NCBI GenBank assembly: GCA_046484285.1
Contig: JAWOBP010000186.1
Span: 10,178-74,177, forward strand
Origin: Polyangia bacterium
Lineage (GTDB): Bacteria; Myxococcota_A; Polyangia; JAAYKL01
Direction: 5' to 3'
DNA length: 64,000 nucleotides
Each line of letters starts with the position of its first letter. Within the stretch, counting starts at the first letter, position 1. The translations under genes and the position numbers were made by a program. Of the stretch, positions 13,763 through 60,143 are shown in pieces. The notes beneath the pieces were generated by a model. The model ran no database searches and was not told where the DNA came from. It saw nothing but the letters and a program-made list of their open reading frames with translations.

Positions 13763-14142
13763 GCGCGTCCCGTCAACGCGAGCGGGCGCTGCGCGCGGTG
13801 CGGCGGCGCGATCGGGCGGCGGCCGAGCGCGAGCTGGTCGCGGCCGAGCGCGGCCTGCGGCTCCAGGAGAGACGCCTCGAGCGGCTCCACGAACGCGTCG
13901 CCAGGCTGCGCAGGCGGGCCGCCGGGCCGCGGGAGGGAAGCGTCTTTCCGGCCTGGGCCCTGGCCTCGGGAGACGAGGCTCGGCGCCTGTGCCGCGCCGA
14001 GCTGGAGCGCGTCGAAGCCGAGCTGGAGCGAGTCTCCGGGCAGCGCGACCGGGCGCTCGATCGCCTGGAGAGGGCTCGCCAGGAGGCGGTCCGGGCCGCC
14101 CGCGCGCTGTCGGCGATCGACGGCAGAGACTTCAGAACCTGA
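13759..14142 (+). CDS. small Arg/Glu-rich coiled-coil protein (FliJ/YscO-like composition), hypothetical
   Basis: GTG start overlapping previous stop (GTGA); RERALRAVRRRDRAAAERELVAAERGL...; low confidence, GC-rich frames are easily open. Confidence 0.3.
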   Translation: MSASRQRERALRAVRRRDRAAAERELVAAERGLRLQERRLERLHERVARLRRRAAGPREGSVFPAWALASGDEARRLCRAELERVEAELERVSGQRDRALDRLERARQEAVRAARALSAIDGRDFRT

Positions 14143-15184: not shown

Positions 15185-15425
15185 GAAATCCTCTCGCCCG
15201 AACGCGCCGGCATGCTGCCTCGCTTTGGAGCGCCGGCGCCTGGCGCTTGTTTACCCGCCTTGGGCGCCGCGTGTAAACAGAAAAGGCGATCTTTGCGAAA
15301 TCGTTGAGGTAATCGACCAAATCACGGTTTCGTCACGATTCCGCCGGGTTCGCTTTCCCAGCGGGTTGACCGCCGGCGACCCGGCGCGCAACAATCGGCG
15401 GACTCGAAGCGGAACGAAAGAACGC

Positions 15426-16844: not shown

Positions 16845-16852
16845 GGCGCTCG

Positions 16853-21124: not shown

Positions 21125-21244
21125 CTTCTTCGCAGCTCGCAGGTCTGCCGGCTCGTATCCGGATTCGGAGAGCCCCGGGCTCGATTCGGCTGTTTTCTAA
21201 CTCCGGGCGGAGAGGGGAGCAACGTTTTTGTTGCCGGGTCTCGT

Positions 21245-22498: not shown

Positions 22499-23121
22499 GG
22501 CAGCGTCCTCGCGTAGCTCTCGTAGTCCTCGAGGCTTCTTCTCAGAGAAGCCAGCGCGTAGCGCATCCGGCTCTTGACGGTCCCCACCTTGGAGTCGACC
22601 ACCGACGCGATCTGTTCGAACGTGAGCCCGTGGTACTCGCGCATCAGGAAGACCTCGCGCTGATCCTCGGGCAGCCGATCGATGCCCTCGACGATCGCCT
22701 CGCGCAGCCTGCCCGCCGCGGCCGACCTGTCCGGCCCCGGATTTCCGCCGGCCAGCCGCTCGCCCAGCGCCGGGCCGTCCTCGCGAGGTCGTTCCTCCAG
22801 CGAGCGGTGCCTGCGGTGCCTCGCGCGCCGGGCGGCGTCGATCGCGGCGTTGCGGGCGATCGCGTAGATCCAGGTCGAGAAACGCGAGCGATGATCGAAC
22901 GTGACGGCCTTGCCGATCACCTTGGCGAAGGTGTCCTGGCGCAGGTCCGCGGCCAGGTCGCGGTTGCCGCACTGAAGCACGAGGAAGGAGAATATCGGCC
23001 CTTTGTACCTCTCGAACAGGGTCTCGAATGCACGAGCGTCGCCGGCCTGGAAGCGCGTCATCAGCTCCTCGTCTGTGTATCGCGGCTCGTTCATCCGGGG
23101 CGTCACCATCCGCCGCGACAC
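22495..23121 (-). CDS. ECF-subfamily RNA polymerase sigma factor
   Basis: 208 aa; region 2 (FETLFERYKGPIFSFL...DLRQDTFAKV) and region 4 (LPEDQREVFLMREYHGLTFEQIASVVDSKVGTVKSRMRYA). Confidence 0.85.
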   Translation of the reverse strand: MSRRMVTPRMNEPRYTDEELMTRFQAGDARAFETLFERYKGPIFSFLVLQCGNRDLAADLRQDTFAKVIGKAVTFDHRSRFSTWIYAIARNAAIDAARRARHRRHRSLEERPREDGPALGERLAGGNPGPDRSAAAGRLREAIVEGIDRLPEDQREVFLMREYHGLTFEQIASVVDSKVGTVKSRMRYALASLRRSLEDYESYARTLP

Positions 23122-23378: not shown

Positions 23379-24206
23379 ATGAATCGACCGAAACTCTGGG
23401 CATTGTTCTCGTGTGTCGCCGTGGCTCTTCCCGGGGCGCTGCTGGCCCAGGACGCGGCTCAGCCCGACGAGGGCGAGGTCGGGGCTCAGGCCGGCGCCGA
23501 GAGCGGAGAGGCCGCCGGCGGCGAGGAAGCCGGTGACGAGGCCGCGGCGGGAGAGTCCGGCCAGGAGGCCGCCGGCCAGGAGGCCGCGGCCGAGCAGCCG
23601 GCGGCGGGCGCGGGAGAGCCCGGAATGGACAAGGGAACCTACACCGTGAGGCTGCGCGATCTGGAGGATCGCATCAACCGTCTCAAGGAGCAGATCTTCC
23701 GCTCCAAGGCCCGTCTCAGCCTGCTGGCGGAGACGGTGCTCGACCGCAAGATCGCCGGGGCCAAGGCCGCGATCTCTTTCCGCAACGAGATGGGGGGATC
23801 GTTCCGCTTGACCAAGGCGACCTTCCTGCTCGACGGAGGGCCGATCTTCAACAAGAGCGACGAGGCAGGGAGCCTGTCCGATCGCGAAGTGATCGATCTT
23901 TTCGACGGGCCGGTGATGCCGGGCGACCACACCTTGAGCGTGGTGCTTCACTATCGGGGTCACGGCTACGGGATCTTCTCCTACTTGAAAGGCTATTCGT
24001 TCAAGGTCCGCTCCAGCCGCACCTTCACGGTCGGCGAGGGCAAGGCGGTCGAGGTCGAGGTCGTCGGCTTCGAGAAGGGCGGGGTCACGACACCCCTGGA
24101 GGAGCGCCCGGCCGTTCGGTATGTCGAGGACGTGGGTGAATACGAGGGCAAGGCCGCCGCCGAGAAGGGCGAGCCGATCGCCGAGGGAGCCGGAGAGGGT
24201 CTGTGA
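23379..24206 (+). CDS. secreted protein with acidic low-complexity N-terminal region; first gene of Agl/Glt-like cluster
   Basis: Signal peptide MNRPKLWALFSCVAVALPGALLAQ; GAGGAAGG RBS; stop overlaps next gene start (GTGA). Confidence 0.5.
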   Translation: MNRPKLWALFSCVAVALPGALLAQDAAQPDEGEVGAQAGAESGEAAGGEEAGDEAAAGESGQEAAGQEAAAEQPAAGAGEPGMDKGTYTVRLRDLEDRINRLKEQIFRSKARLSLLAETVLDRKIAGAKAAISFRNEMGGSFRLTKATFLLDGGPIFNKSDEAGSLSDREVIDLFDGPVMPGDHTLSVVLHYRGHGYGIFSYLKGYSFKVRSSRTFTVGEGKAVEVEVVGFEKGGVTTPLEERPAVRYVEDVGEYEGKAAAEKGEPIAEGAGEGL

Positions 24207-26485
24207 TTTTGCGATTCGCTGTCCACCACGGCGCGACGGCCGCGCTGGCGCTGGCGCTGGTGATTTCCGTCTCGAGTGCGGGCGCGGACGAGATCCGCGA
24301 CGTTCGGATCGAGGCGGAGGACATTCGCGACAGAGCGGCGACGTTGTCCACTCAGTTCTTGGGCCATGATGGTTTCCGCGGCGAGAACTACGCCGAAGAG
24401 CGCCTGATCGACGGCGAGAATTTCTACCGCATGAAGGACTACCAGCGGGCCGCGATCATCTTCATGGACATCATCGAATCCTATTCCGACAGCCCGGCCT
24501 ATCCGGACGCCCTGTTCTATTTCGCCGACGCCCTGTTCCTTTCTCGAGATTATTACGGTGCGCGCGAGTGGTTCCGCCACGTGCTCGACGAGTCCCACAA
24601 ACCGGGGATGGCGCGGTTCCGCACGCAAGCAATCGAGCGCCTGATCGAAATAGCGATTCACCTCGACGAATTCGAGGGGGTCGAGGCCTATTTCGACCAG
24701 CTCGGGCAGACGCCCGGTCCGGAGGCCCGCTACATCAAGGGCAAGTACCTGTACTTCCGCGAGGACCACGAGGCCGCGCTTCGCGAGTTCGGCGGCGTCA
24801 GCGGCGACAAGACCCTGGAGCTCAAGGCGGCCTACTTCACCGGCGTGATCCACACCGAGGCGGAGCGCTACGACCGGGCGATCGCCATCTTCTCCGAAGC
24901 AGCCGAGCGGCAGCCGGAGTCTCCCGAGGACCAGGAGGTGATCGACCTGCTGAATCTCGCCTTGGGGCGCCTCTACTACGAGAAGGATTTCGTGGAGAAC
25001 GCGTCGGCGGCCTACCAGCGCATCGGCCAGAGGTCGAAGTACTTCGACGCCGCGCTGTACGAGGCCGCTTCGGTTCTGATCAGGGCCGGCGACACGATCC
25101 GGGCCGAGCGCACGCTGGAGGTGCTCACGCTGGCGATGCCCGACAGCCAGTACATTCCCAAGGCCAAGCTGCTGCGCGGCAACCTGTTGCTCCGCTCCGG
25201 TCGCTACGACGATGCCGAGGAGGTGTTCGAGGAAACGATCGGGGAGTTCACGCCGGTCAAGGAGAAGCTCGAAGAGCTGATGGTCGAGCAGCAGGACATG
25301 CGCAAGTTCTTCTCCGGTCTGATCGAACGCAGCATGACCACGCTCGACGTGTCGGGCATGCTGCCCTCCCTGGTGGTCAAGTGGGTCACCGAGGAGAACG
25401 AGGTGCAGCGCGCTCTGGAGCTGACCTCCGATCTCGGCGTGGCCCGCGAGTACGCCAGGGAGACCGAGCGGCTGGTGCGGCTGCTGGAGGCCGTGATCGA
25501 CGGGCCGAGCCGGATCAACGCGATTCCCAACCTGCGCTCCGCGACGCGCAAGTCGCAGCAGATGAGCAACCAGCTCAGCCAGCTGCGCGGGCGCCTGCTG
25601 TCGGTCGAGCAGCGCAAGCTGGGCGGCTCGGATCCCAGGCTCGAGGAGCTGCGTCGCGAGCGAAAGCAGCTGCAGGACGACCTGGATCGGCTGCCCACCA
25701 GCGGAAACGAATTCGACAAGCGCGAGGAGAAATCTCGTTCGGTCCACAGGCGCATGCGCCACGAGCTGGCGCGCAACGAGATTCGACTCGACAAGCTGCA
25801 GGCGATGATCGTGGCGCTCGAGCGCTTCGTCGAGGATCCGCGCTACACCGAGGGGGCCTCGAAGGATAGCCTCGACGCTCTGCGCTCCGAGCTGCTGCGG
25901 CACCGCCGCGGCGTCGAGGAGATGCGCGAGAAGGTCGGCTCGATTCGCGAGAGCGTGGAACGGGCCAGGTATCGGGTCGGTGTCGGAGACAGCGCCGACG
26001 AGCGGGACCGGAAGCTGCGCGAGCGTATTCGCGAGCTGAGCCGCCGCGAGCGGGAGCTGTTGCGCGGACGCGGGGGCGAGACCGGCAGGCGGCTCGACGG
26101 CGCCTACGCAGTGATCGACCAGGCCGAACAGCAGCTGTCCGCCTTTCAGCGCAAGGTGCGGGCCGAGGCGGATCGGCGCATCGAGGAGATGCGCGCCCAG
26201 GTCAAGAGGGAAAAGGATCGATTGAAAAGATATCGTTCCGAGATCCAGGCGCTCAACGACGAGGCCGAACAGGTCGTGGGCGGGGTGACCTACGAGAACT
26301 TTTCGAGCGTTCGCAAGAGGTTCCACGATCTGCTCCTCAAGGCAGACGTCGGTATCATCGACGTGGCGTGGATGCGCAAGGAGGAGCACTCCGATCGCAT
26401 CAGCGAGCTGACCAAGGCACGCCTGTCCGAGATCAAGAGGTTGGACGAGGAATTCCAGGAAGTGCGCGACAAAGAAAAGGAATGA
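24203..26485 (+). CDS. TPR-repeat protein with long C-terminal coiled-coil
   Basis: 760 aa; signal-like N-terminus; multiple 34-aa TPR-like repeats (AYFTGVIHTEAERYDRAIAIF, LGRLYYEKDF...) then approx 350 aa of heptad-rich sequence. Confidence 0.65.
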   Translation: MILRFAVHHGATAALALALVISVSSAGADEIRDVRIEAEDIRDRAATLSTQFLGHDGFRGENYAEERLIDGENFYRMKDYQRAAIIFMDIIESYSDSPAYPDALFYFADALFLSRDYYGAREWFRHVLDESHKPGMARFRTQAIERLIEIAIHLDEFEGVEAYFDQLGQTPGPEARYIKGKYLYFREDHEAALREFGGVSGDKTLELKAAYFTGVIHTEAERYDRAIAIFSEAAERQPESPEDQEVIDLLNLALGRLYYEKDFVENASAAYQRIGQRSKYFDAALYEAASVLIRAGDTIRAERTLEVLTLAMPDSQYIPKAKLLRGNLLLRSGRYDDAEEVFEETIGEFTPVKEKLEELMVEQQDMRKFFSGLIERSMTTLDVSGMLPSLVVKWVTEENEVQRALELTSDLGVAREYARETERLVRLLEAVIDGPSRINAIPNLRSATRKSQQMSNQLSQLRGRLLSVEQRKLGGSDPRLEELRRERKQLQDDLDRLPTSGNEFDKREEKSRSVHRRMRHELARNEIRLDKLQAMIVALERFVEDPRYTEGASKDSLDALRSELLRHRRGVEEMREKVGSIRESVERARYRVGVGDSADERDRKLRERIRELSRRERELLRGRGGETGRRLDGAYAVIDQAEQQLSAFQRKVRAEADRRIEEMRAQVKREKDRLKRYRSEIQALNDEAEQVVGGVTYENFSSVRKRFHDLLLKADVGIIDVAWMRKEEHSDRISELTKARLSEIKRLDEEFQEVRDKEKE

Positions 26486-26534
26486 GCCCCGTGTCGGCTT
26501 ACGGGGAGATGCTACGGTCGAGCGACTGGAAGAG

Positions 26535-29500
26535 GTGCTGGTCTTGACGCAGAGGCACGGGAGACATCTTTCGTTTTGGGACGCCGCGCTGGCGGCGGTC
26601 CTCGCGGGGTTGCTCGTCGCGGCGCCGAGAGTGTCGCGCGGGCAGGAGCGCTCGGACGAGCGCGCCTCGGGTCCGGTCGAGCCGGGCGGCGCGGCTGCGC
26701 CGACGGTCACCAGCTCCATGGAGCGCGCTCCCGAGGGAGAGGAGGAGCTGACGCTCGGCGAGATCCGGGAGCACGATCTGCAGATCTTCATCGAGCGGAG
26801 CGGCGATTTCAAACAGATAGTGGACGGGATGGTGCGCCGCGTCTACGAGATGCGGCGCAGCTTCGTGGACGAGAACTACGAAAGCAAGATCAAGGCCGAG
26901 GAGGAGCGCGCCAAGCAGGCCCGGCGAGACGCGATTGCTTACTTCGAGGCTTTTTTGGAAAAGTACCCCAGCGATCCGCCCTACACCCCGGACGCGATGT
27001 TCAGGCTGGCGGAGCTGTACTACGACGATTCCTATATCAAGTACCTGGACAGCTTGGACGCCTATCACGAGGCACAGGAACGCGGTGAAGGAGCGACCGC
27101 CCAGCTGCCGGTCAAGGAATTCGAACGCACGATCAATCTCTTCCGCGAGCTGGTCCAGCGCTATCCCGATTATCGCAACGTGGACGGAGCGTACTACCTG
27201 CTCGGTTACACGCTCAACGACACCGGTCACGAGAAAGAGGCGAGGCTGGCCTGGCTGAACCTGGTCTGCGCCAACAAGTACACCTACGAGCCGGGAGCGA
27301 CCGGGCGGGAGAAGACGAACGAGGCGGCGGCCGCGGACGATCGCCCCTCTGCGAGCCTCGATACCGGCGCCGAGGAAGAGCTCCGGACGGGATTCGTCAA
27401 CCCGTTCGCCGACTGCGAGCCGGTCGCCGACAACAGTCGCTTCTTCTTCGAGGCGTGGTGGCTGATCGGCAACTACCACTTCGATTACGACACCAGCAAG
27501 TACGGCGTGGAGACCGCGATCGCGGCGTACAAGAAGCTGGTCGAGGATCCCGAGCACCGGTTCTACGACAAGGGCCTCTACAAGCTGGCCTGGAGCTACT
27601 TCAAGGCCGACATGTACCACGAGGCGGTGCGCACCTTCGCCGAGGTGGTCGAGTACTCGGACACGCACGGCGTGGGCAAGCAGTCGGGAATGCGCCCCGA
27701 GGCGATCCAGTACCTGGCGGTCTGCTTTTTCACCGATGATTGGAACGTCGATCTGGTCCCGGACGAGACCACCGGCATCGAGCGCCTCCAGGACCCGGAG
27801 CTGATGCCCCAGGACCGCGGCTGGACGCGCGAGGTCTACGCCCGGCTCGGCGACATCTACTACGACAACGAGAAGCACAAGGAGGCGATCCGCGTCTGGG
27901 AGCTGTTCCTCGAAAAATGGCCGCTCGACGTTCAGGCCCCCTTCATCCAGGACAAGATCGCCGATGCGTACAACCGGCTGCGGCTGTTCGACAAGGAGAT
28001 CACCGAGCGCTCCGAGCTGGACGACTACGGGCCGGGCAGCGAGTGGTGGGAGGCCAACGACGACCACCCCGGCGAGCAGGCCGAGGTCTCGGACATGGCG
28101 CGCGACGCGCTGATCAACTCGGCGCTGATCCACCACCGCAACGCCCAGGCGCTGCGCAAGCGCGGGGTGACGACCGAAGATCCCGAGGTTTTGCAGCTGG
28201 CGCTCGGGGAGTACAACCTGGCCGCCGAGGCCTACCGCAAGTACATCGACCTGTACCCCGACACGCCGGACGCCTACGAGCTCAACTTCCAGATGGCGGA
28301 CGCGCTGTTCTGGTCCGGCCAGTACGCCGAGGCCAAGCAGGAGTACATCCGGGTCCGCGACTCGAACCTGGACGACAAGTACCGCGACGAAGCCGGGCAC
28401 ATGGTGATCCTCTGCATCGAGAAGCAGCTCGAGGAGAAGCAGGCGGACGGCGAGCTGGTGATCCGCGAGGAGTCGCCTCCGCTGGAAGGGGATCCCCCGG
28501 CGCCCAACCCGCTGCCGCTGCCGCCGCTGCTGCTCGAGCTGATGAACGAGCGCGAGGCGTTCCTCGAGGCCGCGTCGGATTCGGAGCAGGCGGCGACCTT
28601 CGAGTACCAGGCGGCCCAGACCTACTACCGTTACGGGCACTGGGACGAGGCCTTGCCGCGTCTGGAAAAAGTCTACGAAAAATACTGTAATGAGAGCGAG
28701 GTCTCGATCATCGCGTGGAAGACCCTGATGAAGGTCGCCACGGATCGCAACGACCTCGACGAGAAGGAGCGCCTCGCGCTGCTGGAGAAGGACCAGCAGT
28801 GCGCGGTCGAGGGAATGGAGCTGGACGAGGACGAGTCGATCGACCTCGGAACCCTGCTCGGCGACGTGGCCGTGCAGCGCTCGATGAACAAGTTCAACGA
28901 GTGCCAGGAGACCAAGGAGGCCGAGATCTGCACCGAGGCCGGAGAAGATCTCGTCGCCGCGGTGGGCAAGGCTCCGCAGCACCAGAGCGCGGACGCCGCC
29001 CTGCACAACGCGGCGCTGGCCTACGAGCACGCGCAGCGCTTCGACACGGCGATGAAGATCTACGGCCGAATCGTCGACGAGTACCCGGAGAGCCGCTGGG
29101 TGGACAAGTGCCTGTTCAAGCAAGCCTACGCGGCCAACAATTTCTTCGAGTACGAAAAAGCGCTCGATAACTACAAGATCCTGGCCGACGAGAAACGCTT
29201 CGAGGATTCCAAGTATCGGGTCGATTCGATTTACAATACGGCCTACATCCTGACCAACTTGCAGTCGTACGAGCAGGCCGTTCCCTACTGGGAGCGCTAC
29301 GCCGCCGAGGTCGACGATCCGGAAAAGCGCATCGAGGCGAGGTTCAACGCCGCCGACATGCACTTCCGCGCCGAGCGCTGGCGCACGGCGATCAAGGCTT
29401 ACGAGAGCTTCATCAGGCGCTACGAGCGCAACTCCGAGGCCGGCATCTATGTGGTCAAGGCCTCCTACCGCGCCGGGATCGCCAACCAGAAGAGCAACCG

Positions 29501-30155
29501 GCCCAAGCGCAGGATCACGGCGGCCTGGAACCGCACGGTGGAGCTGTACAAGCGGCTGGTCAACGAGCCGGGATCGATGTCGGCGGAGTACGCGGCCGAG
29601 AGCCATTTCCTCCTGATCGAGGAGGACATGCGCGATTTCGAAAAATTCGAGATCAAGGGGTCGGAAAAGCAGATCGAGCGCAAGATCAACGAGGGTGCCG
29701 AGAGGGTCAAGGAATTCGAGGAGCGCTACCGCAAGATCCAGAAGTACCGCCGTCCGGTCTGGTCGCTGGCCGCCGAGTTCCGCATCGGCTACGCCTACGA
29801 GGTCTACGCCAAGGCGATCTACAACATTCCCCCGCCGCCGCTCGACAGGGAGCTGAGGCGACAGCTCAAGCAGCTTCCACCCGAGGATCGCGAGCTGGTG
29901 ATGCTCGAGTACGAGGACAAGTTCCGCGCCGCCATGCAGCAGAAGGTCGAGAAGATGGAGGACCGCGCCAAGGAGGAGTACAGGATAGCGGTCGAGCTCG
30001 CGCGCGAGGGCAACATCTCCAACGAGTGGACTCTGCTGGCGCTGGAGAGGATGAACGCCTACGAGCCCGACAACTACCCGCGACAGCACAACGGCGTCGT
30101 CGAGAAACGCGTCGACACGGTCTCCGCGCCGCCGTTCGCTTCCGAGGTCCAGTGA
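26535..30155 (+). CDS. large (approx 1200 aa) periplasmic TPR-repeat protein, GltD/AgmU-like
   Basis: Signal peptide; TPR-like repeats throughout; size and position (upstream of smaller TPR lipoprotein and TolQR-like genes) parallel M. xanthus gltD (agmU); assignment by architecture only. Confidence 0.65.
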   Translation: MLVLTQRHGRHLSFWDAALAAVLAGLLVAAPRVSRGQERSDERASGPVEPGGAAAPTVTSSMERAPEGEEELTLGEIREHDLQIFIERSGDFKQIVDGMVRRVYEMRRSFVDENYESKIKAEEERAKQARRDAIAYFEAFLEKYPSDPPYTPDAMFRLAELYYDDSYIKYLDSLDAYHEAQERGEGATAQLPVKEFERTINLFRELVQRYPDYRNVDGAYYLLGYTLNDTGHEKEARLAWLNLVCANKYTYEPGATGREKTNEAAAADDRPSASLDTGAEEELRTGFVNPFADCEPVADNSRFFFEAWWLIGNYHFDYDTSKYGVETAIAAYKKLVEDPEHRFYDKGLYKLAWSYFKADMYHEAVRTFAEVVEYSDTHGVGKQSGMRPEAIQYLAVCFFTDDWNVDLVPDETTGIERLQDPELMPQDRGWTREVYARLGDIYYDNEKHKEAIRVWELFLEKWPLDVQAPFIQDKIADAYNRLRLFDKEITERSELDDYGPGSEWWEANDDHPGEQAEVSDMARDALINSALIHHRNAQALRKRGVTTEDPEVLQLALGEYNLAAEAYRKYIDLYPDTPDAYELNFQMADALFWSGQYAEAKQEYIRVRDSNLDDKYRDEAGHMVILCIEKQLEEKQADGELVIREESPPLEGDPPAPNPLPLPPLLLELMNEREAFLEAASDSEQAATFEYQAAQTYYRYGHWDEALPRLEKVYEKYCNESEVSIIAWKTLMKVATDRNDLDEKERLALLEKDQQCAVEGMELDEDESIDLGTLLGDVAVQRSMNKFNECQETKEAEICTEAGEDLVAAVGKAPQHQSADAALHNAALAYEHAQRFDTAMKIYGRIVDEYPESRWVDKCLFKQAYAANNFFEYEKALDNYKILADEKRFEDSKYRVDSIYNTAYILTNLQSYEQAVPYWERYAAEVDDPEKRIEARFNAADMHFRAERWRTAIKAYESFIRRYERNSEAGIYVVKASYRAGIANQKSNRPKRRITAAWNRTVELYKRLVNEPGSMSAEYAAESHFLLIEEDMRDFEKFEIKGSEKQIERKINEGAERVKEFEERYRKIQKYRRPVWSLAAEFRIGYAYEVYAKAIYNIPPPPLDRELRRQLKQLPPEDRELVMLEYEDKFRAAMQQKVEKMEDRAKEEYRIAVELAREGNISNEWTLLALERMNAYEPDNYPRQHNGVVEKRVDTVSAPPFASEVQ

Positions 30156-31555
30156 TGCGTAGAATTTGGACGAGGATCACGCTTTCATCGCTGTTGCTCT
30201 GCTCACTGGCGGTGGCGTGCGGCGGCTCGCAGAAGAAGAAGGACGAGACTGCGGCCGGAGCCGAGCAGCCAGCCGTGCCCGGCGAGCCCGACTCCTACGA
30301 CGTCCCGCAGGGCGGCGACGACCAGAGCACCGGGGACGCCGTGCCCACCGGGCCCGGAGAGCAGGCGCCGGAAGAGCACCAGATGAGCGCCGACGCGCGC
30401 GGTACTTACAACGACGGGGTCCGGGCGGCCGCGGAGGGAAACCTGGATCGGGCCCGCCAGTCCTTCGAGCGAACCTTGCAGATCGATCCCAGGGCACACC
30501 AGGCGCTCTACAACCTGGGAGTGATCGCCGATCGCAAGGGGGACGAGGAGGGATCTCGCAGCTACTACCGCCAGGCGCTGGCGGCGCAGCCGAACTACCT
30601 GCCCGCGATCCGCGCGCTGTCCAACCTGGAGGTGCGCCGAGGCAATGTAGACGCGGCGGTGGGAATGATGCGCGATCTGGTCGGCAGGTATCCCAAGGAC
30701 ATCGGGATCCTCAACCAGTACGCGGAAGTCCTGATCGTGGCCAGCCGCTACAAGGACGCGATCGACGTGGCCAAGCAGGCCCTGCGCGTCGACGAGCGCA
30801 ACGCCGAGGCGATGCTGCGAGTGGGCAAGGCCAACCTGCGGCTGGGGCGCACCGAGCTGGCCGAGGCGGTTTTCGAGAACGTTTTGTCCATCAACCCCGA
30901 CGAGGCGGAGGTGTTCTTCCTGCGCTCGTTCATCTACCTGGAGAGGGGACACAAGGTCGAGGCGATCAACAGCCTGAAAAAGACGCTGGAGAAACGGCCC
31001 ACGCACGTCGAGGCGATGAACAACCTGGCCGTGCAGTACATCCTGTCCGGCAACTACGAAGAGGCGATCGCGCAGCTCGAGAAGGCCTTGGAGCTGGCTC
31101 CCTCCTGGGGCGTCCTGCACCTGAACCACGGCAACGCGCTGCGCGGAGCGGGACGCTGGCAGGAGGCCAAGCAGGAGCTGGAGCGCGCCCGCCAGCTCGA
31201 TCCCTCTTTGACCGGGGTGCTGTTCAACAAGGCCATTCTCTACTACGTGGCCGAGGGGTTGGACGATCTGGAGCGCCTCGAGCGCTACAAGAAGGCCAAG
31301 CGGCTGTTCGCCGACTACAAGGCCGAGATGGGCTCGGCCCTGGAGAAGGACGATCCGGTCCATGATTATCTCAAGGAGTTGGATCGCGTGATCGACAGAG
31401 AAGAGCGGAGGCTGGAGCAGATTGCCGAGCGCGAGAAGCGCGAGGCCGAAAGGGCCGCGGCCCGGGAAGCCGAGGGGGACGCGGGCGCGGCGGACGAAGG
31501 TTGGGAGGACGAAGGCGGCGAAGACGAAGGCTGGGAGGACGAGGGATGGGAGTAG
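30155..31555 (+). CDS. TPR lipoprotein (GltE/AglT-like) with C-terminal GWEDEG repeats
   Basis: MRRIWTRITLSSLLLCSLAVACGG lipobox; canonical TPR run (AHQALYNLGVIADRKGDEEGSRSYYRQALAAQPNY...); ends GWEDEGGEDEGWEDEGWE; TGATG overlap with previous gene. Confidence 0.7.
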   Translation: MRRIWTRITLSSLLLCSLAVACGGSQKKKDETAAGAEQPAVPGEPDSYDVPQGGDDQSTGDAVPTGPGEQAPEEHQMSADARGTYNDGVRAAAEGNLDRARQSFERTLQIDPRAHQALYNLGVIADRKGDEEGSRSYYRQALAAQPNYLPAIRALSNLEVRRGNVDAAVGMMRDLVGRYPKDIGILNQYAEVLIVASRYKDAIDVAKQALRVDERNAEAMLRVGKANLRLGRTELAEAVFENVLSINPDEAEVFFLRSFIYLERGHKVEAINSLKKTLEKRPTHVEAMNNLAVQYILSGNYEEAIAQLEKALELAPSWGVLHLNHGNALRGAGRWQEAKQELERARQLDPSLTGVLFNKAILYYVAEGLDDLERLERYKKAKRLFADYKAEMGSALEKDDPVHDYLKELDRVIDREERRLEQIAEREKREAERAAAREAEGDAGAADEGWEDEGGEDEGWEDEGWE

Positions 31556-31586
31556 ATCGCCCGCCGGCAGCGATCGGACCGGGGGA

Positions 31587-31652
31587 CGGAAACGGCTCGT
31601 CTCCGAGCGCGTCGCCGGGCCGTTTCGGGGCGCCGGAAGCGGTTTTCTCTTT
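31587..31652 (+). terminator. candidate rho-independent terminator after TPR lipoprotein gene
   Basis: Inverted repeat cggaaacgg...ccgtttcgg followed by ttttctctttt. Confidence 0.3.
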
Positions 31653-31818
31653 TCGTGAAAAGTGTTCGATTTTTGACTTGGTGATGAGCAAAACACTGTG
31701 GTAGGATGCTCTCCGCTCGGCTGCGGTTCGTCAGCCGAAGAGAGGTAACGGACGAAGACGGGACGGAGCATTCGAGCGCCAGAAACGGGCGCCATTCCCG
31801 ACGAAGGAGGAGTCGAAG

Positions 31819-32460
31819 ATGCAGGCAATCGCAGAGGCATTCTCAGCGGGCGGAGGCTGGATGTACGTGATCGCGTTCGCGTCCGTGATCGGTCTCGGCA
31901 TCATTGTGGAACGGTTCATTTTCCTGTTCTTCAAGTACAACATCAACGCCAACGCATTCATGGGGCAGGTGCAGAAGTTGGTGATGGCGAACAACATCGA
32001 CCGCGCCATCAAGCTGTGCAACGCCGCGCCCAACGCCGCGCTCCCCAAGGTGATCAAGGCCGGGCTGACTCGGGCCAACAAGGGCGAGCTCGAGATCTCG
32101 AACGCGATCGAGGAGGCTACCCTCGAGGTGGTGCCGATGGTGAGCAAGCGCACGCCGATCCTCGGCGGCGTGGCCAACATCGCAACGCTGATGGGACTGC
32201 TCGGAACGATCGTCGGTCTGATTCAGGCGTTCGCCGCTCTAGAGTCGGCGGCGCCCGACGCCCGCGCGGCCGCGTTGGCCAAGGGTATCTCGATGGCGAT
32301 GAACACCACGGCCTTTGGTCTGATCGTGGCGATCCCGTGCATGGCGGCGCAGATCTTCTTGCAGTCCGTGACCACGAAGATCCTCAACGAGATCGACCAG
32401 TACTCGGTGAAGCTGGAGAACCTGCTCGTTTCGAGGTACCGCGCCGGCGGTTCGCAGTAG
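31819..32460 (+). CDS. MotA/TolQ/ExbB-family proton channel (AglR-like)
   Basis: 213 aa, three TM helices, conserved C-terminal TM with ...TTAFGLIVAIPCMAAQIF; AAGGAGGAG RBS. Confidence 0.85.
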   Translation: MQAIAEAFSAGGGWMYVIAFASVIGLGIIVERFIFLFFKYNINANAFMGQVQKLVMANNIDRAIKLCNAAPNAALPKVIKAGLTRANKGELEISNAIEEATLEVVPMVSKRTPILGGVANIATLMGLLGTIVGLIQAFAALESAAPDARAAALAKGISMAMNTTAFGLIVAIPCMAAQIFLQSVTTKILNEIDQYSVKLENLLVSRYRAGGSQ

Positions 32461-32548
32461 CACCGAGCGGGTCGAAGCTCCCAGGCGGCGCCCTCGATGA
32501 GCGCCGCCCGGGGCAAGGTCGGCTCGGTTCGATTGGAGGTCAACGCTC

Positions 32549-33058
32549 ATGGCGATCAAGCGACGCGAAACGGGGGGATACGAAGGGGATCCGCTGATTC
32601 CGATCCTCAACCTCGTGTGCATGCTGATTCCGTTGCTGCTCTACGGGGCCGTTTTCGTCCGATTCATGACGTTGACGGTCAACGCCCCGAAGATCTCGAG
32701 GGCGCCTTCTCAGCAGAAGCCGAAGGAGCAGGACGCGCTGAACCTGACGGTGATGATCACGGACCAGGGGTTCCACTTCAAGGTGAATCCCAAGCATCGT
32801 CTCCCCTGGATGTCCCAGGCGACCGAGACGGCGTCCTCCGGTCCGGACATTCCCAAGAAGGACGACGACTGGGACTTCAAGGAGCTGAACCGCAAGCTCA
32901 AGGAGATCAAGGACAACCATCGGGAGGAGCAGAACCTGATCCTGGGCGCCGAGGACGACATCAAATACGAGGTGTTGATCAAGGCGATGGATTTCTCCCG
33001 CGGGACGCCGGAGGATCCCCTCTTCCCAGTGGTGACATTGACCAGGGGCGTGGTCTGA
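32549..33058 (+). CDS. ExbD/TolR-family protein (AglQ/AglS-like)
   Basis: 169 aa; N-terminal TM with ILNLVCMLIPLLLY, periplasmic ExbD fold segment. Confidence 0.85.
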   Translation: MAIKRRETGGYEGDPLIPILNLVCMLIPLLLYGAVFVRFMTLTVNAPKISRAPSQQKPKEQDALNLTVMITDQGFHFKVNPKHRLPWMSQATETASSGPDIPKKDDDWDFKELNRKLKEIKDNHREEQNLILGAEDDIKYEVLIKAMDFSRGTPEDPLFPVVTLTRGVV

Positions 33059-33164
33059 CGCGGACCCGCCGGGACGACCGCGTCGCCGAGGTGAACGCCG
33101 TCGGCCAGCGGTTGCCCAACAGTTTGCACGACGCGAAGCGTACACCGTTTCGACGGAGGAAACG

Positions 33165-33746
33165 ATGAACCAGACTTCGAGCAACGCCGAAGCCGTTGAC
33201 GCCCTCTGGGCGCAAAAGAGGAAGGAACGCAAGGAGAAGCGTCGCCGCAGGGAGTCCGAGCGGGGCAAGCTGCTGATCAACTCCCTGATGGACGCGTTCA
33301 CGATCATCCTCTGCTTCCTTCTCAAGCAGTTCGGCGCGGACCCGGTCCAGATCCGGGAGTCCGACGAGATGCAGCTGCCGCGCACCAGCTCGGAGCAGCC
33401 GCTCGAGGACGCGGTGGTGATCGGTATCTCTTCCAAGTCGATCCAGGTGGGCGATCAGAAGGTGGCCGATCTGCGCAACGGAGCGGTCGACGAGAGCATG
33501 AAGCGCGACGGCCAGGAGGGTCTGCTGATCAACCCGTTGCTCGAGCGGCTCAAGGAGAGGGTGCAGCACCTCAAGATGATCGCCGCGCGGACCGGGAGCC
33601 AGTTCGAGGGCATGGCGCTCGTAGTGGGTGACAAGGATACCAGTTATCGGTTGATCACCGAGGTTCTGTATACGGCTGGACAAGCGGAGTTCGAGAAGTT
33701 CAAGTTCGTGGCGGCCGAGGGCGGGGAGGACTCCGAGAAGGAGTAG
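33165..33746 (+). CDS. second ExbD/TolR-family protein
   Basis: 193 aa; Lys/Arg-rich N-terminus, TM LMDAFTIILCFLL, ExbD-like periplasmic domain. Confidence 0.7.
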   Translation: MNQTSSNAEAVDALWAQKRKERKEKRRRRESERGKLLINSLMDAFTIILCFLLKQFGADPVQIRESDEMQLPRTSSEQPLEDAVVIGISSKSIQVGDQKVADLRNGAVDESMKRDGQEGLLINPLLERLKERVQHLKMIAARTGSQFEGMALVVGDKDTSYRLITEVLYTAGQAEFEKFKFVAAEGGEDSEKE

Positions 33747-33842
33747 GAGCGAGGACCGCAGCGTTCCGGCAACGTCAGGGGGGCCTCGGGGTCCGGTTGT
33801 CGTCGAAATGAGAACCCGGGCCTTTCGAAGGGATACCCAAAG

Positions 33843-35327
33843 ATGGGCACTGCCAAGAAGCCACCTTCAGCAAGACCCCGATCCCCGGGCGGTCGTCCGC
33901 CCGGCCGTCCGCCCGGACAGGACCGGAGCAACCTGCCGAAGGTCTTGAGGATCGGCATAATCCAAGGGGGCAAGATCATCGAGGAGCGGATCGTGCGCCG
34001 CCGAGAGACGGTCACCGTCGGTTCCTCGGAGAAGAACCATTTCATCCTCACCGCGCAGGAGTTCCCCGTCTCCCGTTTCGAGATGTTCGAGACGCGCGGC
34101 GGTCCCTACATTCTCAATTTCGACGAGAAGATGAGCGGCCGCGTCTCGCTCGAGGGCGAGGTCGTGGAGCTGGCGGAGATGCGCGCCAGCGGCAAGGCGC
34201 GCAAGAAGGGGAAGGTCTACCAGCTTCCCTTGAGCGACAAGTCGCGGGGCAAGGTCGTGATCGGGGAGACCACGATCCTGTTCCAGTTCGTGGCTCCGCC
34301 TCCGATCAGGCCCAGGCCGCAGCTCCCGGCGGCGGTGCGCGGCGGCGTGTTCCGCAGCATGGACTGGTTCATCACCACGCTGTGGGTGGTCTCCTTTTTG
34401 CTGCATGGCGGAATCATCTTCTGGTGGGAGACCACGGACTGGCCCAAGCGCGATCAGTGGGACAAGTTCATGGAGCTCCAGGAGCTGATCGCCTCCGACA
34501 CGGATGCCACCTTCGAGAAGAAAAAGAAGTCCGAGGTCGAGGAGGGCGAGGGAGACGAGGAGGAGCTCGAGGACGAGGGCGAGGTGGAGGACGAGTCGCA
34601 GAAGAAGGCCAGGGCGTCCAAGCAGGCGGCGGCGGATACGGGGCCCAAGAAGTCGGCCGAGGAGATAGCGCGGGAGAGGGCGGAGAAGCGCGCTCAACTG
34701 GCCGAGAAGCTGGCCGAAAAGGGTATCAACAAGATTCTGGGCACGCTCGGAGGCGAGGGTGCCGACGGCGCGATCGCCGACGTTCTAAAGGGCGGCGACG
34801 TGGGCGCCGACCAGGACGATCTGCTCGAGCAGGTGGGCGGCGTGGGAGTCGCCACCAGCGAGAAGGGCGGATCGCTCAAGGGTCCGGCAGGCGGCAAGGG
34901 AAGCGGCGAGGCCGAGAACGTGGACCAGGTCAAGGTCAAAGGGGGAGACAAGACGGTCAAGACCGAGGGCCCCGGACAGGAGCGCAAGGTCAAGGGAAGG
35001 GTGAGGAAGAAGCAGCCGATGAGCTCGGGCGGCACCGGGATGCTGAAGCAGTCCGATGTGGCAAAGGTGATCAACCGCCGCATCGGCGCGATCAAGGGAT
35101 GCTACGAACGGGCTCTGAAGCGCGATCCGTCTTTGCAAGGCAAGGTCACGGTGCAGTTCACGATCTCCGGCAGCGGGCGGGTGACCAACGCCAGGGCCAC
35201 GAGCTGCGAGGTCGGAGCAGCGGTCTGCAGCTGCATCACCTCCTCTTTCAAGCGGTTCCGTTTCCCGCCGCCGGAAGGAGGATCGGTGACCTTCCAGATG
35301 CCGTTCCTGTTCACGCCGTCGGGTTGA
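33843..35327 (+). CDS. membrane protein with cytoplasmic beta-rich N-domain, one TM helix, Lys/Glu-rich linker and TonB-C / AgmX-PglI-type C-terminal domain (GltG/GltJ-like)
   Basis: TM FITTLWVVSFLLHGGIIFWW; C-terminus VTVQFTISGSGRVTNARATSCEVGAAVCSCITSSFKRFRFPPPEGGSVTFQMPFLF resembles TonB C-terminal domain. Confidence 0.6.
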   Translation: MGTAKKPPSARPRSPGGRPPGRPPGQDRSNLPKVLRIGIIQGGKIIEERIVRRRETVTVGSSEKNHFILTAQEFPVSRFEMFETRGGPYILNFDEKMSGRVSLEGEVVELAEMRASGKARKKGKVYQLPLSDKSRGKVVIGETTILFQFVAPPPIRPRPQLPAAVRGGVFRSMDWFITTLWVVSFLLHGGIIFWWETTDWPKRDQWDKFMELQELIASDTDATFEKKKKSEVEEGEGDEEELEDEGEVEDESQKKARASKQAAADTGPKKSAEEIARERAEKRAQLAEKLAEKGINKILGTLGGEGADGAIADVLKGGDVGADQDDLLEQVGGVGVATSEKGGSLKGPAGGKGSGEAENVDQVKVKGGDKTVKTEGPGQERKVKGRVRKKQPMSSGGTGMLKQSDVAKVINRRIGAIKGCYERALKRDPSLQGKVTVQFTISGSGRVTNARATSCEVGAAVCSCITSSFKRFRFPPPEGGSVTFQMPFLFTPSG

Positions 35328-35551
35328 TCCGGCAGGTGGGCTCGAAGAGGGGAGACAGTCCAAAAGAAATCGGGAGGGATTCAGATACTCGAAATGAACG
35401 ATCGTCATCCTCGATGTAACCAAATCTTCGGATGTGATTGCGGCGGGAAAGTGTCGTTATCCGGAGGTGGAAGTGAAAAGAAAAAATTTGGTGGCATACG
35501 ATCGTTTTTCCGAGTAAAACAGTAGTCCATTTTGATCGAAGGGTTGGAAAG

Positions 35552-36142
35552 ATGCGACGAATTCGAAGTACGAAAATCCTGGCCCCAGCGGCTGCCGTCG
35601 GAGTGGTCGTGCTCCTTTTCGGAGACGTACGCGCCCAGGAGGCTCGTCCTACCGGAGACATGCCCGACATAGATGTGACCGTCGACAGTTCGTCGCAGGG
35701 GCTCAGCGGAGCTCAGATGATCGCCTGGGTCGAGGAGCAGAAGAAGGTCTGCAAGGGGATCTACCGTCGCGTGCAGAACATGCTCGACCAGGCGCGCAAG
35801 GAGAAGGACACCCTGAAGATAACTTGTCTCGATGACAAGCTGACTCAGATACACGTGAACCTGCGGGGCATCGAGGAGCGGCAGGCCGCCTTGGAGACTG
35901 CGGTCAAGGGGGGCGACATGTCCTCGGCCAACCAGCAGTTCACGATTCTCAAGATATACGTGTCGCGGGTCCAGGGATTGATGGCCGAGGCCGAGGGTTG
36001 CATCGGAGATTCCGACGTGGTGATCGGGGAGACCGAAACGGTCGTCGAGATCGATGAGGACATCACCATGGAGGACCCGACCGAGACGCCGGACGTAGAA
36101 GTGGGTGTGGAGCAACCCCCGCACGCGAGCGGGTTTTACTAG
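35552..36142 (+). CDS. periplasmic coiled-coil protein, hypothetical
   Basis: Signal peptide MRRIRSTKILAPAAAVGVVVLLFGDVRAQ; preceded by AT-rich 220-nt region carrying two ACGATCGT palindromes. Confidence 0.45.
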   Translation: MRRIRSTKILAPAAAVGVVVLLFGDVRAQEARPTGDMPDIDVTVDSSSQGLSGAQMIAWVEEQKKVCKGIYRRVQNMLDQARKEKDTLKITCLDDKLTQIHVNLRGIEERQAALETAVKGGDMSSANQQFTILKIYVSRVQGLMAEAEGCIGDSDVVIGETETVVEIDEDITMEDPTETPDVEVGVEQPPHASGFY

Positions 36143-36230
36143 CAGGGGGAAAGGTATCGAACGCGCCGGATCGCGGGAAGTGCGAGCGGAGCGACTTTTC
36201 CTTTTTTCGAGAAGAGAACAGCGATAGCCA

Positions 36231-37553
36231 ATGAGGAAGTGGTCAGCCGGTCTGGTCGTATGTGTCGTTTTCTTGTTGCCCGTATCTGCGGCGGCGCAGC
36301 TGTGGCTACAGGACCGCGCCTCTTCCGAGGGGCCGGGGTTCAAGCTGGGAGACTCGATGGTGCTCCACCTCGGTCTGGGTGCCGAGGGCGGATACGATAC
36401 CAACGCCGTCTACCGATCCGACGACGTGGTCGATGCGGGGCGGCTGCGCATCACGCCCTACATCGATCTCGCCACGCGCGGCGACCAGCGCAGGGTCAAG
36501 GACGAGGGCGTGGTGGACGCCACGCCTCCCAAGGCCAGCTTCAAGCTGGGCGTGGCCGGCTTCTGGGACCAGTACTTCGCCGAGGAGCAGCGGGTCAAGG
36601 ACGTCAGCGATTTCGGGATCGACACCCACCTCGATTTCGTCCTCTTTCCCGAGGGCAACTTCAGCCTGCTGCTGGACGCCGTGTACCTCAGGACGCTGCA
36701 GCCGTACGAGAGCGCCTCCGACGCCAGAGCCAGGCAGCAGGTGGAGCCGGGCATCGGCGTGCGCGTGCGGCCCGGCGGCGGCACGCTCAGCCTCGAGCTC
36801 GGATACCGCCTGAGGTTCATGTACTTCGAGGACGACGTGCTGGGGGACCAGAACAACCGCCACGGGCACGAGGCGCGCTTCGAGACGCGCTGGAAGGTGT
36901 TTCCCAAGACCGCTTTGATCGGCCGGGTGACCTTCACCCCGACGGTCTACTACGAGAGCGACTCGATGAACGAGAACTCGCTGCCGGTCCGATCCTGGGC
37001 CGGGCTGCAGGGGCTGTTCACCGATCGCTTCGGCCTGATGCTGCTCGGCGGCTACGGCGCCAGCTTCTACAACGCGGGTCCCAACTTCGACAGCTTCCTG
37101 GCGCGCGGAGAATTGATGTTCTTCATCACTCCGTTTTCGCAGATACGGCTCGGCGGACAGCGCGATTTCGTCGACTCGTTCTACGCCAACTTCTACGTGA
37201 AAAACGGCGGCTATCTCTCCTACCAGCAGATGATTGGAGGGGTGGTGATGCTGACGCTCAAGGGCGACGTATTCTACCGCGACTACGCTCGCTTCGACGG
37301 ACCCACTTTCAACGGTGCGATTCCCAGCCACCAGGAGCGAAACGACGTGTGGGCCGAGGGCTCGCTGCTGGTGGAGTGGCGCGCCACCGATTGGCTCTCG
37401 TTCCACGCCTCGGGCAAGTACACCGGCGACATCACCGACTTCTACTACCAGAGCACCTACGAGGATCCGTCCACCGGAACGCAGACCACGGTCGAAACCG
37501 ATGCGGGCTTCCACAAGTTCGTCGTGCTCGGCGGCGTGCGCGGGCACTACTAG
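36231..37553 (+). CDS. outer-membrane beta-barrel protein
   Basis: Signal peptide; alternating amphipathic strands; C-terminal ...VVLGGVRGHY (terminal aromatic). Confidence 0.55.
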   Translation: MRKWSAGLVVCVVFLLPVSAAAQLWLQDRASSEGPGFKLGDSMVLHLGLGAEGGYDTNAVYRSDDVVDAGRLRITPYIDLATRGDQRRVKDEGVVDATPPKASFKLGVAGFWDQYFAEEQRVKDVSDFGIDTHLDFVLFPEGNFSLLLDAVYLRTLQPYESASDARARQQVEPGIGVRVRPGGGTLSLELGYRLRFMYFEDDVLGDQNNRHGHEARFETRWKVFPKTALIGRVTFTPTVYYESDSMNENSLPVRSWAGLQGLFTDRFGLMLLGGYGASFYNAGPNFDSFLARGELMFFITPFSQIRLGGQRDFVDSFYANFYVKNGGYLSYQQMIGGVVMLTLKGDVFYRDYARFDGPTFNGAIPSHQERNDVWAEGSLLVEWRATDWLSFHASGKYTGDITDFYYQSTYEDPSTGTQTTVETDAGFHKFVVLGGVRGHY

Positions 37554-37566
37554 CCCGCGCGGATCG

Positions 37567-38187
37567 ATGACACCTCTTTCTCCCGCGGGAACGAGACGGG
37601 CCATCCGAGCCTGGCTGGCCGCGCTGTTGCTGCTCGCCTCGTGCGGGTCGAAGGATCCCGCGACGACCATTCCGATCCAGTCTTCTCCCCAGCCGGACAC
37701 CACGCTGGGAGCGGGCGACCTGTTCGACGTGCGCGTCTTCGGCGAGAAGGACCTGACCGGCGCCTATCGCGTCGACTCGAACGGCACGATCGACTTCCCG
37801 CTGGTGGGTACGATCGAGGTCAAGGGATTGACCGCGACCGACGTGGCCGACAAGCTGGAGAGGCTGCTCGAGGAGGGGGAGTTCCTGTTCAATCCCCAGA
37901 TCTCGATCCTTGTCAAGGAGTACAACAGCAAGAAGGTCTCGGTCTTTGGCCAGGTCAAGAAACCCGGCACCTTCCCCTACCATAACAGAATGACCGTGGT
38001 GGAGGCGATCTCGCTGGCCGGCGGGTTCACCTCGATGGCCAAGACGGACAATACGACCGTGATTCGGGGCGAGGGCGATGCACAACAACGTTACAGCGTG
38101 CCGGTCGAGGATATCGGCCGGGGTCGAGCTGCCAACTTCCTGCTGAGATCGGGCGATATCGTGTTCGTGCCCGAGCGCATCTTCTGA
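37567..38187 (+). CDS. short Wza-type polysaccharide-export (PES + SLBB domain) lipoprotein
   Basis: LLLLASCGS lipobox; LGAGDLFDVRVFGEKDLTGAYRVDSNGTIDFPLVGTIEVKGLT (PES motif) and SLBB-like segment; lacks the Wza C-terminal helix. Confidence 0.7.
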   Translation: MTPLSPAGTRRAIRAWLAALLLLASCGSKDPATTIPIQSSPQPDTTLGAGDLFDVRVFGEKDLTGAYRVDSNGTIDFPLVGTIEVKGLTATDVADKLERLLEEGEFLFNPQISILVKEYNSKKVSVFGQVKKPGTFPYHNRMTVVEAISLAGGFTSMAKTDNTTVIRGEGDAQQRYSVPVEDIGRGRAANFLLRSGDIVFVPERIF

Positions 38188-60069: not shown

Positions 60070-60143
60070 CAGCGCGGTGAAGAAGAGGTGATTCGTTTTT
60101 TCAATTGCCGGCCGCGGCCGGCCAAGAAAAGGAGAGAGAAGAC

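Follow-up and report, generated by a model that had tools for sequence, protein, structure and literature searches.

The core complex of the Myxococcus xanthus gliding machinery, that is, gltC, gltD, gltE, and gltG (Group B) together with aglR, aglQ, and aglS, is also clustered in Geobacter and in some γ- and β-proteobacteria, where its function is unknown, and the core genes on their own are insufficient for motility (Luciano 2011, PLoS Genet 7:e1002268). In Geobacter, the genes of GltC (626 aa), GltD (1090 aa), and GltE (272 aa) are followed by an extra gene and then by those of the motor proteins AglR (211 aa), AglQ (166 aa), and AglS (165 aa) and of GltG (505 aa) (Luciano 2011, Table S3; PMC3169522). 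What Glt-like cores do in non-gliders, and what the G4, G5, and M2 paralogous clusters do in M. xanthus, has been an open question since 2011. Here we analyze a cluster of eleven genes, denoted G1 to G11 (these numbers are unrelated to the M. xanthus cluster names), that combines such a core with the genes of a polysaccharide pore. It occupies positions 23379-38187 of the forward strand in a 64-kb stretch of contig JAWOBP010000186.1 from a Polyangia bacterium (the window; G+C content about 65%), and coordinates refer to this stretch unless another locus is named.

Two further described systems are relevant. Short OPX (outer membrane polysaccharide export) proteins form translocons with 18-strand barrels, as in the pairs WzaB/WzpB, EpsY/EpsX, and ExoA/ExoB (Saidi 2022; Schwabe 2022; Nat Commun 2026). 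WzaB exports the biosurfactant polysaccharide (BPS) of M. xanthus, WzaB/WzpB being the experimentally shown BPS translocon, and the genes of WzpB (MXAN_1916) and WzaB (MXAN_1915) are 23 bp apart. OPX channels of Class 3 have no gating loop, and the porin must provide the gating (Nat Commun 2026). The other system is Agl-Nfs, in which AglRQS together with Nfs transports the spore-coat polysaccharide exported by a Wza-type protein (Wartel 2013, PLoS Biol 11:e1001728). The Glt-like core family and the WzaB/WzpB-type OPX/porin pair are thus both already known. What is new here is the conserved coupling of a complete core, in about 50 relatives, to a pore of this type, which apparently has not been discussed in the literature.

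Genes G2 to G8 (24203-35327) encode GltC-, GltD-, GltE-, TolQ-, TolR-, TolR-, and GltG-like proteins, in this order. All seven gene types of the published core complex are present in the Geobacter-like arrangement C-D-E-(x)-R-Q-S-G, with a short GltG (about 450-500 aa) at the end; the extra gene between gltE and aglR, found outside Myxococcales, is absent. The window adds to the published complex the genes G1 and G9, a porin, an OPX protein, and a pair of sigma and anti-sigma factors of the extracytoplasmic function (ECF) type. The original prediction, made from the sequence before any database search, had described an eleven-gene cluster at these coordinates and matched its composition and order to the ancestral core of the gliding motor. 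Pfam, NCBIfam, and hydropathy analyses agree with the domains it listed, and the seven genes stand in the Geobacter core order. Its expectation of GltE and GltG similarity was also borne out, as these are the best NCBIfam matches of G4 and G8.

The first three core genes encode proteins with tetratricopeptide repeats (TPR). G2 (24203-26485, 760 aa) combines TPR with a long coiled coil and has a weak match to the GltC model NF033756 (46 bits, cut-off 450). Its position and size are those of MXAN_1923 (809 aa), Hoch_6494 (823 aa), and the GltC-like proteins of Geobacter (626-629 aa), and judging from its sequence and place it is the GltC-like periplasmic member of the core. G3 (26535-30155, 1206 aa) carries TPR_6, TPR_14, and TPR_19 repeats. 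It has no GltD profile match even at E = 10, NCBIfam apparently containing no such model. It agrees with GltD homologues in size, TPR content, and position (MXAN_1922, 1111 aa; Hoch_6495, 1202 aa; Geobacter, 1090-1108 aa), and by these properties alone it is called GltD-like and presumed to be the periplasmic pillar. G4 (30155-31555, 466 aa), a TPR protein whose sequence contains the lipobox AVAC, is a GltE-like lipoprotein with the GltE model NF033758 as its top NCBIfam match (129 bits over model positions 37-398 of 411, cut-off 225).

At the other end of the core, G8 (33843-35327, 494 aa) is a GltG-like transducer of the TonB/TolA type. It matches the GltG model NF033760 at 158 bits (model positions 191-649, cut-off 650), the AgmX/PglI tail model NF033768 at 92 bits (cut-off 40), and, at the borderline, TonB_C (27.6 bits, cut-off 27.1). 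The protein consists of a cytoplasmic membrane-proximal domain, a single transmembrane (TM) helix at residues 175-194, a long linker rich in charged residues and Gly, and a TonB-C-like tail. The TM helix contains the S184-x3-H188 motif known from TonB and TolA, with S184 in 11 and H188 in 10 of 14 sequences. GltG itself is built of an N-terminal FHA domain that binds GltI (residues 1-114), a central FHA domain (190-329), a TM helix, and a TonB C-terminal domain (PMC11761067). G8 aligns to the central FHA domain, the TM helix, the linker, and the C-terminal domain, and has no N-terminal FHA domain, which fits a machine unwired from the gliding platform. NCBI places the start of G8 later, at 33945, giving a protein of 460 aa in a Polyangia metagenome-assembled genome (MAG) that is 100% identical over the shared region.

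The best profile matches of the cluster, GltE, GltG, and GltC, together with the AgmX/PglI tail, could be taken to mean that it encodes a bona fide adventurous-gliding (Agl-Glt) machine. We regard this as very improbable: all three scores fall far short of the cut-offs given above, G8 lacks the GltI-binding domain, and gltA, gltB, gltK, gltH, gltI, gltJ, and gltF are absent from both the cluster and the 64-kb window. The core genes alone do not suffice for motility (Luciano 2011). NCBIfam searches with E values up to 10 returned no GltA, GltB, GltD, GltF, GltH, or GltK match and nothing useful for G1, G3, G9, or G10.

The three motor genes separate G4 from G8. G5 (31819-32460, 213 aa; MotA_ExbB, 85.9 bits; three TM helices) is a TolQ/ExbB/AglR-like proton-channel subunit that is 83-93% identical within the near clade. 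G6 (32549-33058, 169 aa; ExbD, 36.3 bits) and G7 (33165-33746, 193 aa; ExbD, 33.5 bits; a basic N-terminal tail) are TolR/ExbD-like proteins with one TM helix each. In an alignment of 18 orthologues, the position of the TM aspartate is an invariant asparagine in G6 (IPI[LM]NLVCM), and the aspartate is retained in all G7 sequences (INSLMDAFTIIL). The two subunits are therefore non-equivalent, only G7 keeping a protonatable TM aspartate; in M. xanthus, the essential aspartate D28 has been reported on AglQ.

A MotA/TolQ/ExbB channel, TolR/ExbD subunits, and a single-pass protein with the S-x3-H motif and a TonB-C-like tail are also the hallmarks of Tol-Pal and ExbBD-TonB, and the MotA_ExbB, ExbD, and TonB_C domains would suit a canonical Tol or Ton import system. 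Such an assignment, which the original prediction had named as the outcome that would overturn it, is most improbable. G5 scores 59.8 bits with the TolQ equivalog (cut-off 221) and 33.5 bits with ExbB (cut-off 206), and the TolR equivalog reaches 16 bits (cut-off 127, NCBIfam). The genes tolA, tolB, and pal and a gene for a TonB-dependent receptor are all missing from the 64 kb. The cluster further differs from these systems in having two unlike TolR-like subunits, one of them without the aspartate, and no plug-containing receptor. G3 does exceed the YbgF cut-off (106 bits, cut-off 90); we discarded this hit as evidence for Tol-Pal, as it is a sum of TPR_6 repeats, and the YbgF model has 119 positions, compared with the 1206 aa of G3. 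Since the GltC, GltE, GltG, TolQ, TolR, and ExbB scores all lie below the NCBIfam cut-offs, the cluster is a paralogue rather than the gliding motor, Tol-Pal, or Ton, and we conclude that its product is very probably a trans-envelope machine, Glt-like and of the Tol type, that belongs with the non-gliding core complexes.

The last two genes of the cluster encode the outer-membrane pore. G11 (37567-38187, 206 aa; Poly_export and SLBB_2 domains; lipobox LASC) matches the crystal structure of M. xanthus sWzaB (PDB 9N9A) with 170 bits, E = 3.8e-49, and 49% identity, and scores 89 bits with the EpsY equivalog (cut-off 320). It is a Class-3 (D1D2) OPX protein: its length is within the limit of 280 aa, it has the PES motif, a single SLBB domain, and a lipoprotein signal, and it lacks the Wza_C helix. 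The C-terminal motif VPER[IV]F is conserved; G11 itself ends in ERIF, and nearly all orthologues have a terminal Phe preceded by Ile or Val, the docking motif of WzaB being Phe203-Phe204. The Wza-like protein had at first been taken for a truncated one, a view that has to be abandoned, as G11 is a naturally short OPX protein and not a product of decay.

The product of G10 (36231-37553, 440 aa) is a Wzp-type outer-membrane porin. Its predicted fold is an AlgE-like barrel, the nearest folds being the 18-strand porins AlgE, MOMP, and OpdQ. The model consists almost entirely of strands, and its secondary-structure profile contains no separate folded N-terminal (plug-like) domain. TonB-dependent receptors match it through their barrels only and at lower TM-scores, which also argues against the Ton reading. 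When PDB was searched with profiles of the G9 and G10 alignments, nothing above noise came back. Residues 23-36 of G10 (encoded in the gene starting at 36231, positions 36231-36340; QLWLQDR...EGPG) form the mature N-terminus and are nearly invariant, with low to medium model confidence; a partner in the periplasm may use this segment as a docking peptide.

Together, G10 and G11 are a composite translocon of the described WzpB/WzaB type: a short lipoprotein with the PES motif and one SLBB domain, no outer-membrane helix, a terminal aromatic residue, and an adjoining AlgE-like porin gene. They differ from WzaB/WzpB in lying inside a Tol-like motor cluster, a setting that the papers on those proteins leave undiscussed.

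The G8 alignment was used for a genome profile scan that yielded 346 relatives, the best 80 of which, all MAGs of Myxococcota/Polyangia, were analyzed by tblastn of all window proteins against their loci; 57 loci had enough upstream and 58 enough downstream DNA. Genes G1-G4 are found upstream in 52 of the 57 loci, and in 45 of the 58 loci G9, G10, and G11 follow the G8 homologue in this order. The linkage of G8 to the pore genes holds down to 37-45% G8 identity and across several families. It also persists through rearrangement: in locus L083, genes G1-G4 are rearranged while the TolQRR-G8-G9-G10-G11 block is intact, and L086 and L088 have more distant barrels in the same gene context. The sequence of L085 ("Myxococcaceae") ends before the downstream genes. 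The recurrence of the same order in dozens of independent genomes places the arrangement beyond chance. Pairwise identity matrices of the components correlate with r = 0.76-0.98, in keeping with co-inheritance, although a correlation is expected of any genes passed on vertically. Downstream of G11, conservation of the abhydrolase and DinG genes is limited to the nearest clade, and thus the cluster ends at G11.

The motor genes are located within the cluster in only 12 of the 57 loci. In motor-less loci, the slot between the GltE- and GltG-like genes is taken by genes for a secreted GltF-like protein of 83-88 aa with the motif IEGRVQKPNAFYILNRSNIGYEV and for a protein with several TM helices, about 190 aa long, that matches no Pfam family (L081, 8950-9835; L085, 5446-6291; L088, 6345-7236). 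L086 has both the GltF-like protein (4757-5023) and the motor genes. A search of the window for an open reading frame (ORF) of this GltF-like type found none, the 263-nt spacer between G4 and G5 being non-coding.

The closest counterparts of the locus are two M. xanthus clusters of unknown function. Cluster G4 comprises MXAN_1923 (809 aa), MXAN_1922 (1111 aa, a gltD homologue), MXAN_1921 (490 aa, TPR), MXAN_1920 (91 aa), and MXAN_1919 (447 aa), and cluster M2 comprises MXAN_3003-3005 (260, 173, and 193 aa) (Luciano 2011). The "homologue of" column for MXAN_1919-1923 in Table S3 of PMC3169522 is evidently inverted relative to the protein lengths and the main text. The 809, 1111, 490, and 447 aa of cluster G4 correspond, in the same order, to 760, 1206, 466, and 494 aa in the window, and the M2 proteins correspond to the 213, 169, and 193 aa of genes G5-G7, the length of G7 being that listed for MXAN_3005. 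As MXAN_1919-1923 and MXAN_1915/1916 are close in locus numbering, cluster G4 lies just upstream of wzpB/wzaB, three genes away, again in the order of the window. In M. xanthus, however, the motor genes are elsewhere and the 91-aa GltF-like gene occupies the slot between the GltE- and GltG-like genes, where the window has the motor. Going by the gene order and sizes in the literature and by the WzaB match, the window appears to carry cluster G4, M2, and wzpB/wzaB in unsplit form. The likening of the cluster to the gliding and Nfs sets in the original prediction stands as regards the ancestral core, the specific relationship by order and size being with the G4/M2-type paralogues rather than with either of those sets. 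Literature searches for MXAN_1917-1924, and for papers that connect WzaB or WzpB with Glt, TonB, or ExbD, yielded only Luciano 2011, and in the library searched no paper linked G4 or M2 to WzaB and WzpB.

MXAN_1925 is mentioned in literature dealing with MglA and small GTPases. No GTPase gene is found near the cluster in the window. We take MXAN_1925 to be mglA; if so, the M. xanthus G4 cluster adjoins the polarity GTPase genes mglBA.

Agl-Nfs likewise combines a Glt paralogue and a TolQR-type proton motor with a polysaccharide delivered by a Wza-type exporter. Given this shared architecture and the tie of Nfs to a Wza-exported polymer, the cluster might be an Nfs-type sporulation system that wraps the spore-coat polysaccharide. 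We think this very unlikely, if marginally less so than a gliding role. The Nfs system has the outer-membrane proteins NfsA, NfsB, and NfsC, borrows AglRQS, and has its OPX/porin genes elsewhere; the window cluster apparently lacks NfsA/B-type outer-membrane genes and contains its own motor, and its OPX protein resembles WzaB, the exporter of the vegetative polymer BPS.

Genes of polysaccharide synthesis adjoin the cluster in many relatives. In tblastn searches, at least 20 loci showed homologues of polysaccharide co-polymerases (PCP) or Wzy no more than 10 kb away. For instance, the OPX gene of L081 is followed by NTP_transf_5 and MshEN genes and then by genes for a PCP-2a protein (Wzz/GNVR/kinase), Wzy_C, and heparinase; in L086 it stands beside genes for a NusG paralogue, Wzy_C, a PCP, and a GT28 glycosyltransferase; and L087 has genes for Asn synthase, a GT4 glycosyltransferase, methyltransferases, an epimerase, and MBOAT. 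Locus L066, from a clade in which no OPX gene was detected after the barrel, has at 13882-16593 a hexapeptide acetyltransferase, a DegT aminotransferase, and a GFO/IDH/MocA oxidoreductase, which by their sequences are a WbpD/E/B-like set for di-N-acetylated uronic sugars. These genes, abutting a WzpB/WzaB-type pair that is kept with the Glt-like genes across Polyangia, strengthen the early hint of a link to polysaccharide secretion. BPS is rich in N-acetylmannosaminuronic acid (ManNAcA). The NusG paralogue of L086 (12212-12709, minus strand), located next to the Wzy/PCP genes just downstream of the OPX gene, could act as an RfaH-type antiterminator specific to its operon.

We somewhat favor the reading that the locus encodes a proton-driven trans-envelope complex together with a WzaB/WzpB-type pore and that the complex acts on the secreted polysaccharide. 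For a functional link of the cluster to polysaccharide as such, we see about even chances, and a specific role in gating or transport is a tentative proposal that we would rate as rather unlikely. What the sequences show is the gene content, the family assignments, and a conserved linkage to the OPX/porin pair and often to PCP/Wzy genes; the protein contacts, the proton dependence, and the cargo in this reading are all inferred. The proposed chain takes as its templates the AlphaFold model of GltC/D/E/G and of AglR5-AglQ-AglS/GltG (PMC11761067) and the Agl-Nfs system (Wartel 2013). In it, a TolQ-like pentamer of G5 and a TolR-like heterodimer of G6 and G7 would convert proton flow into movement. 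The movement would be passed to G8, whose long linker could cross the peptidoglycan, and G8 would engage a periplasmic TPR assembly formed by the G3 pillar, G4, and G2, the latter serving as the connector to the outer membrane. The porin G10 and the G11 ring would constitute the outer-membrane end, replacing GltA/B/H. Acting on a Wzx/Wzy-made polymer, such a machine might gate or assist its passage, or else move and organize the polymer at the surface in the manner of Agl-Nfs. Export across the outer membrane by proton drive has a precedent in Oar, a TonB-dependent transporter used for PopC secretion in M. xanthus (PMC6434023).

Several observations weigh against this reading. The Arg106-Arg107 contact of WzaB with the PCP is not kept in G11, which reads LFN at this place (F and N being the aligned residues), and the corresponding loop varies among the orthologues. 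Among the 13 incomplete loci, eight lack a detectable OPX gene but contain G9 and the barrel, three relatives of G8 have none of G9-G11, and the last two retain other partial sets. The 64-kb window contains no PCP, Wzx, Wzy, or glycosyltransferase genes, and neither do the regions beside the cluster in L001-L013, its nearest clade. The gaps that precede G5 (263 nt) and G9 (224 nt) suggest up to three transcription units. The published WzcB-WzaB-WzpB export model works without a motor (Nat Commun 2026). Finally, in M. xanthus a polar insertion in MXAN_1922 leaves gliding and soft-agar swarming at the wild-type level and deletion of MXAN_3004 leaves motility and sporulation normal, whereas BPS-minus mutants do show swarm defects; thus it is not obvious that BPS export requires clusters G4 and M2. 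Their role could, however, be concealed by redundancy with AglRQS or by internal promoters.

Alternatively, the neighbors may be functionally independent, the core doing non-glycan work (envelope integrity, handling of proteins or lipoproteins, or an unknown cargo) and the Wzp/Wza pair serving a distant Wzx/Wzy pathway and being a neighbor of long standing only. The lack of a BPS-type swarm phenotype in the G4/M2 mutants, the completeness of the motor-free export model, the gap before G9, and the missing biosynthesis genes all speak for such independence. In M. xanthus, wzaB, like the window OPX gene, is outside the Wzx/Wzy pathway cluster: mxan_1915 is "orphan-like", being 1 Mb from the BPS cluster, and is contiguous with it in Sandaracinus (Islam 2020). 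Independence is harder to reconcile with a linkage kept at 37-45% G8 identity, in several families and through rearrangements, with G9 always standing between G8 and the porin, and with the repeated appending of glycan genes to the whole block, and we hold it to be a real but rather improbable alternative.

The reading of a polysaccharide-acting complex can be carried further to a hypothesis that we regard as doubtful, namely that machines of the G4/M2 type are dedicated proton-driven partners of Class-3 OPX/Wzp pores and that the ancestral core was a polysaccharide-handling motor. If so, the machine would gate, pull, or distribute the Wzx/Wzy polymer, G1 and G9 would be new adaptor subunits, and gliding (Glt) and spore-coat winding (Nfs) would be later specializations of polysaccharide handling. 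The linkage bears on how Class-3 OPX systems are gated or energized and offers a testable clue, as BPS phenotypes of G4/M2 mutants can be assayed in M. xanthus. Should the link be only genomic, the locus would be another paralogue of a known family.

Two secreted proteins of the cluster have no counterpart in the published core. G1 (23379-24206, 275 aa), which has no Pfam or NCBIfam match, consists of a signal peptide, an acidic disordered linker, a long helix at residues 92-123, and, in the model, an eight-strand sandwich of the transthyretin/Ig-like type. It has more than 2,800 homologues, all annotated as "hypothetical", and is the most conserved of the Glt-like and accessory proteins, that is, the best-conserved non-motor component. 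The structural neighbors of its model, which is not barrel-like, are generic only. G9 (35552-36142, 196 aa), for which a coiled coil had at first been suggested, has a signal peptide, and its orthologue alignment shows a helical domain with invariant Cys92 and Cys150 and the motif TCLDDKLTQI. The sole Pfam match, FANCAA, is sub-threshold (17.1 bits, cut-off 27), and there are no PDB or NCBIfam matches. The gene follows the G8 homologue in nearly all loci.

An ECF sigma factor gene (22495-23121, minus strand, 208 aa; Sigma70_r2, Sigma70_r4_2, and ECF domains in Pfam) is transcribed divergently from G1 across a 257-nt spacer. Its stop codon overlaps by 4 nt the gene of an anti-sigma factor (21245-22498, minus strand, 417 aa), in which Pfam identifies zf-HC2 at the N-terminus and TPR at the C-terminus, and hydropathy analysis a single TM helix. 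The sigma factor gene occupies the same position in L089, an approximately 70% identical relative, as well as in L081/L082 and L019, and L089 has a 426-aa equivalent of the anti-sigma factor at the same place. The pair is likely the dedicated regulator of the cluster. A scan for promoters and terminators gave a signal no better than in shuffled sequence.

Hydropathy analysis places N-terminal signal sequences in G1-G4, G9, and G10. Overlap or tight spacing, at first supposed for most junctions, is confined to three of them (-4, -1, and +13 nt), and the remaining spacers are 49-263 nt long. Two overlapping ORFs were rejected as out-of-frame or overlapping shadows of the high G+C content: one at 32497-33168 (plus strand, 223 aa), where the real TolR-like gene is G6, and one at 15644-22252 (plus strand, 2202 aa), which overlaps real genes.

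The rest of the window encodes proteins of unrelated functions, including GGDEF, histidine kinase, thiamine pyrophosphate enzyme, BcrAD/BadFG, NiFe hydrogenase, and RtcB proteins. The region 14132-21124 is partly syntenic with positions 360-7531 of L089, sharing a Na/Ala symporter, a FabH-like KAS III, and a BcrAD_BadFG/DUF2229 activase of about 1420 aa, and appears to be unrelated to the cluster. Genes for the large and small subunits of the NiFe hydrogenase are located at 51472-54050 on the minus strand, and genes for multihaem cytochrome c7-like and rhodanese-domain proteins at 58825-61250 on the plus strand, a combination that points to a respiratory module linked to hydrogen or sulfur in the Polyangia MAG.

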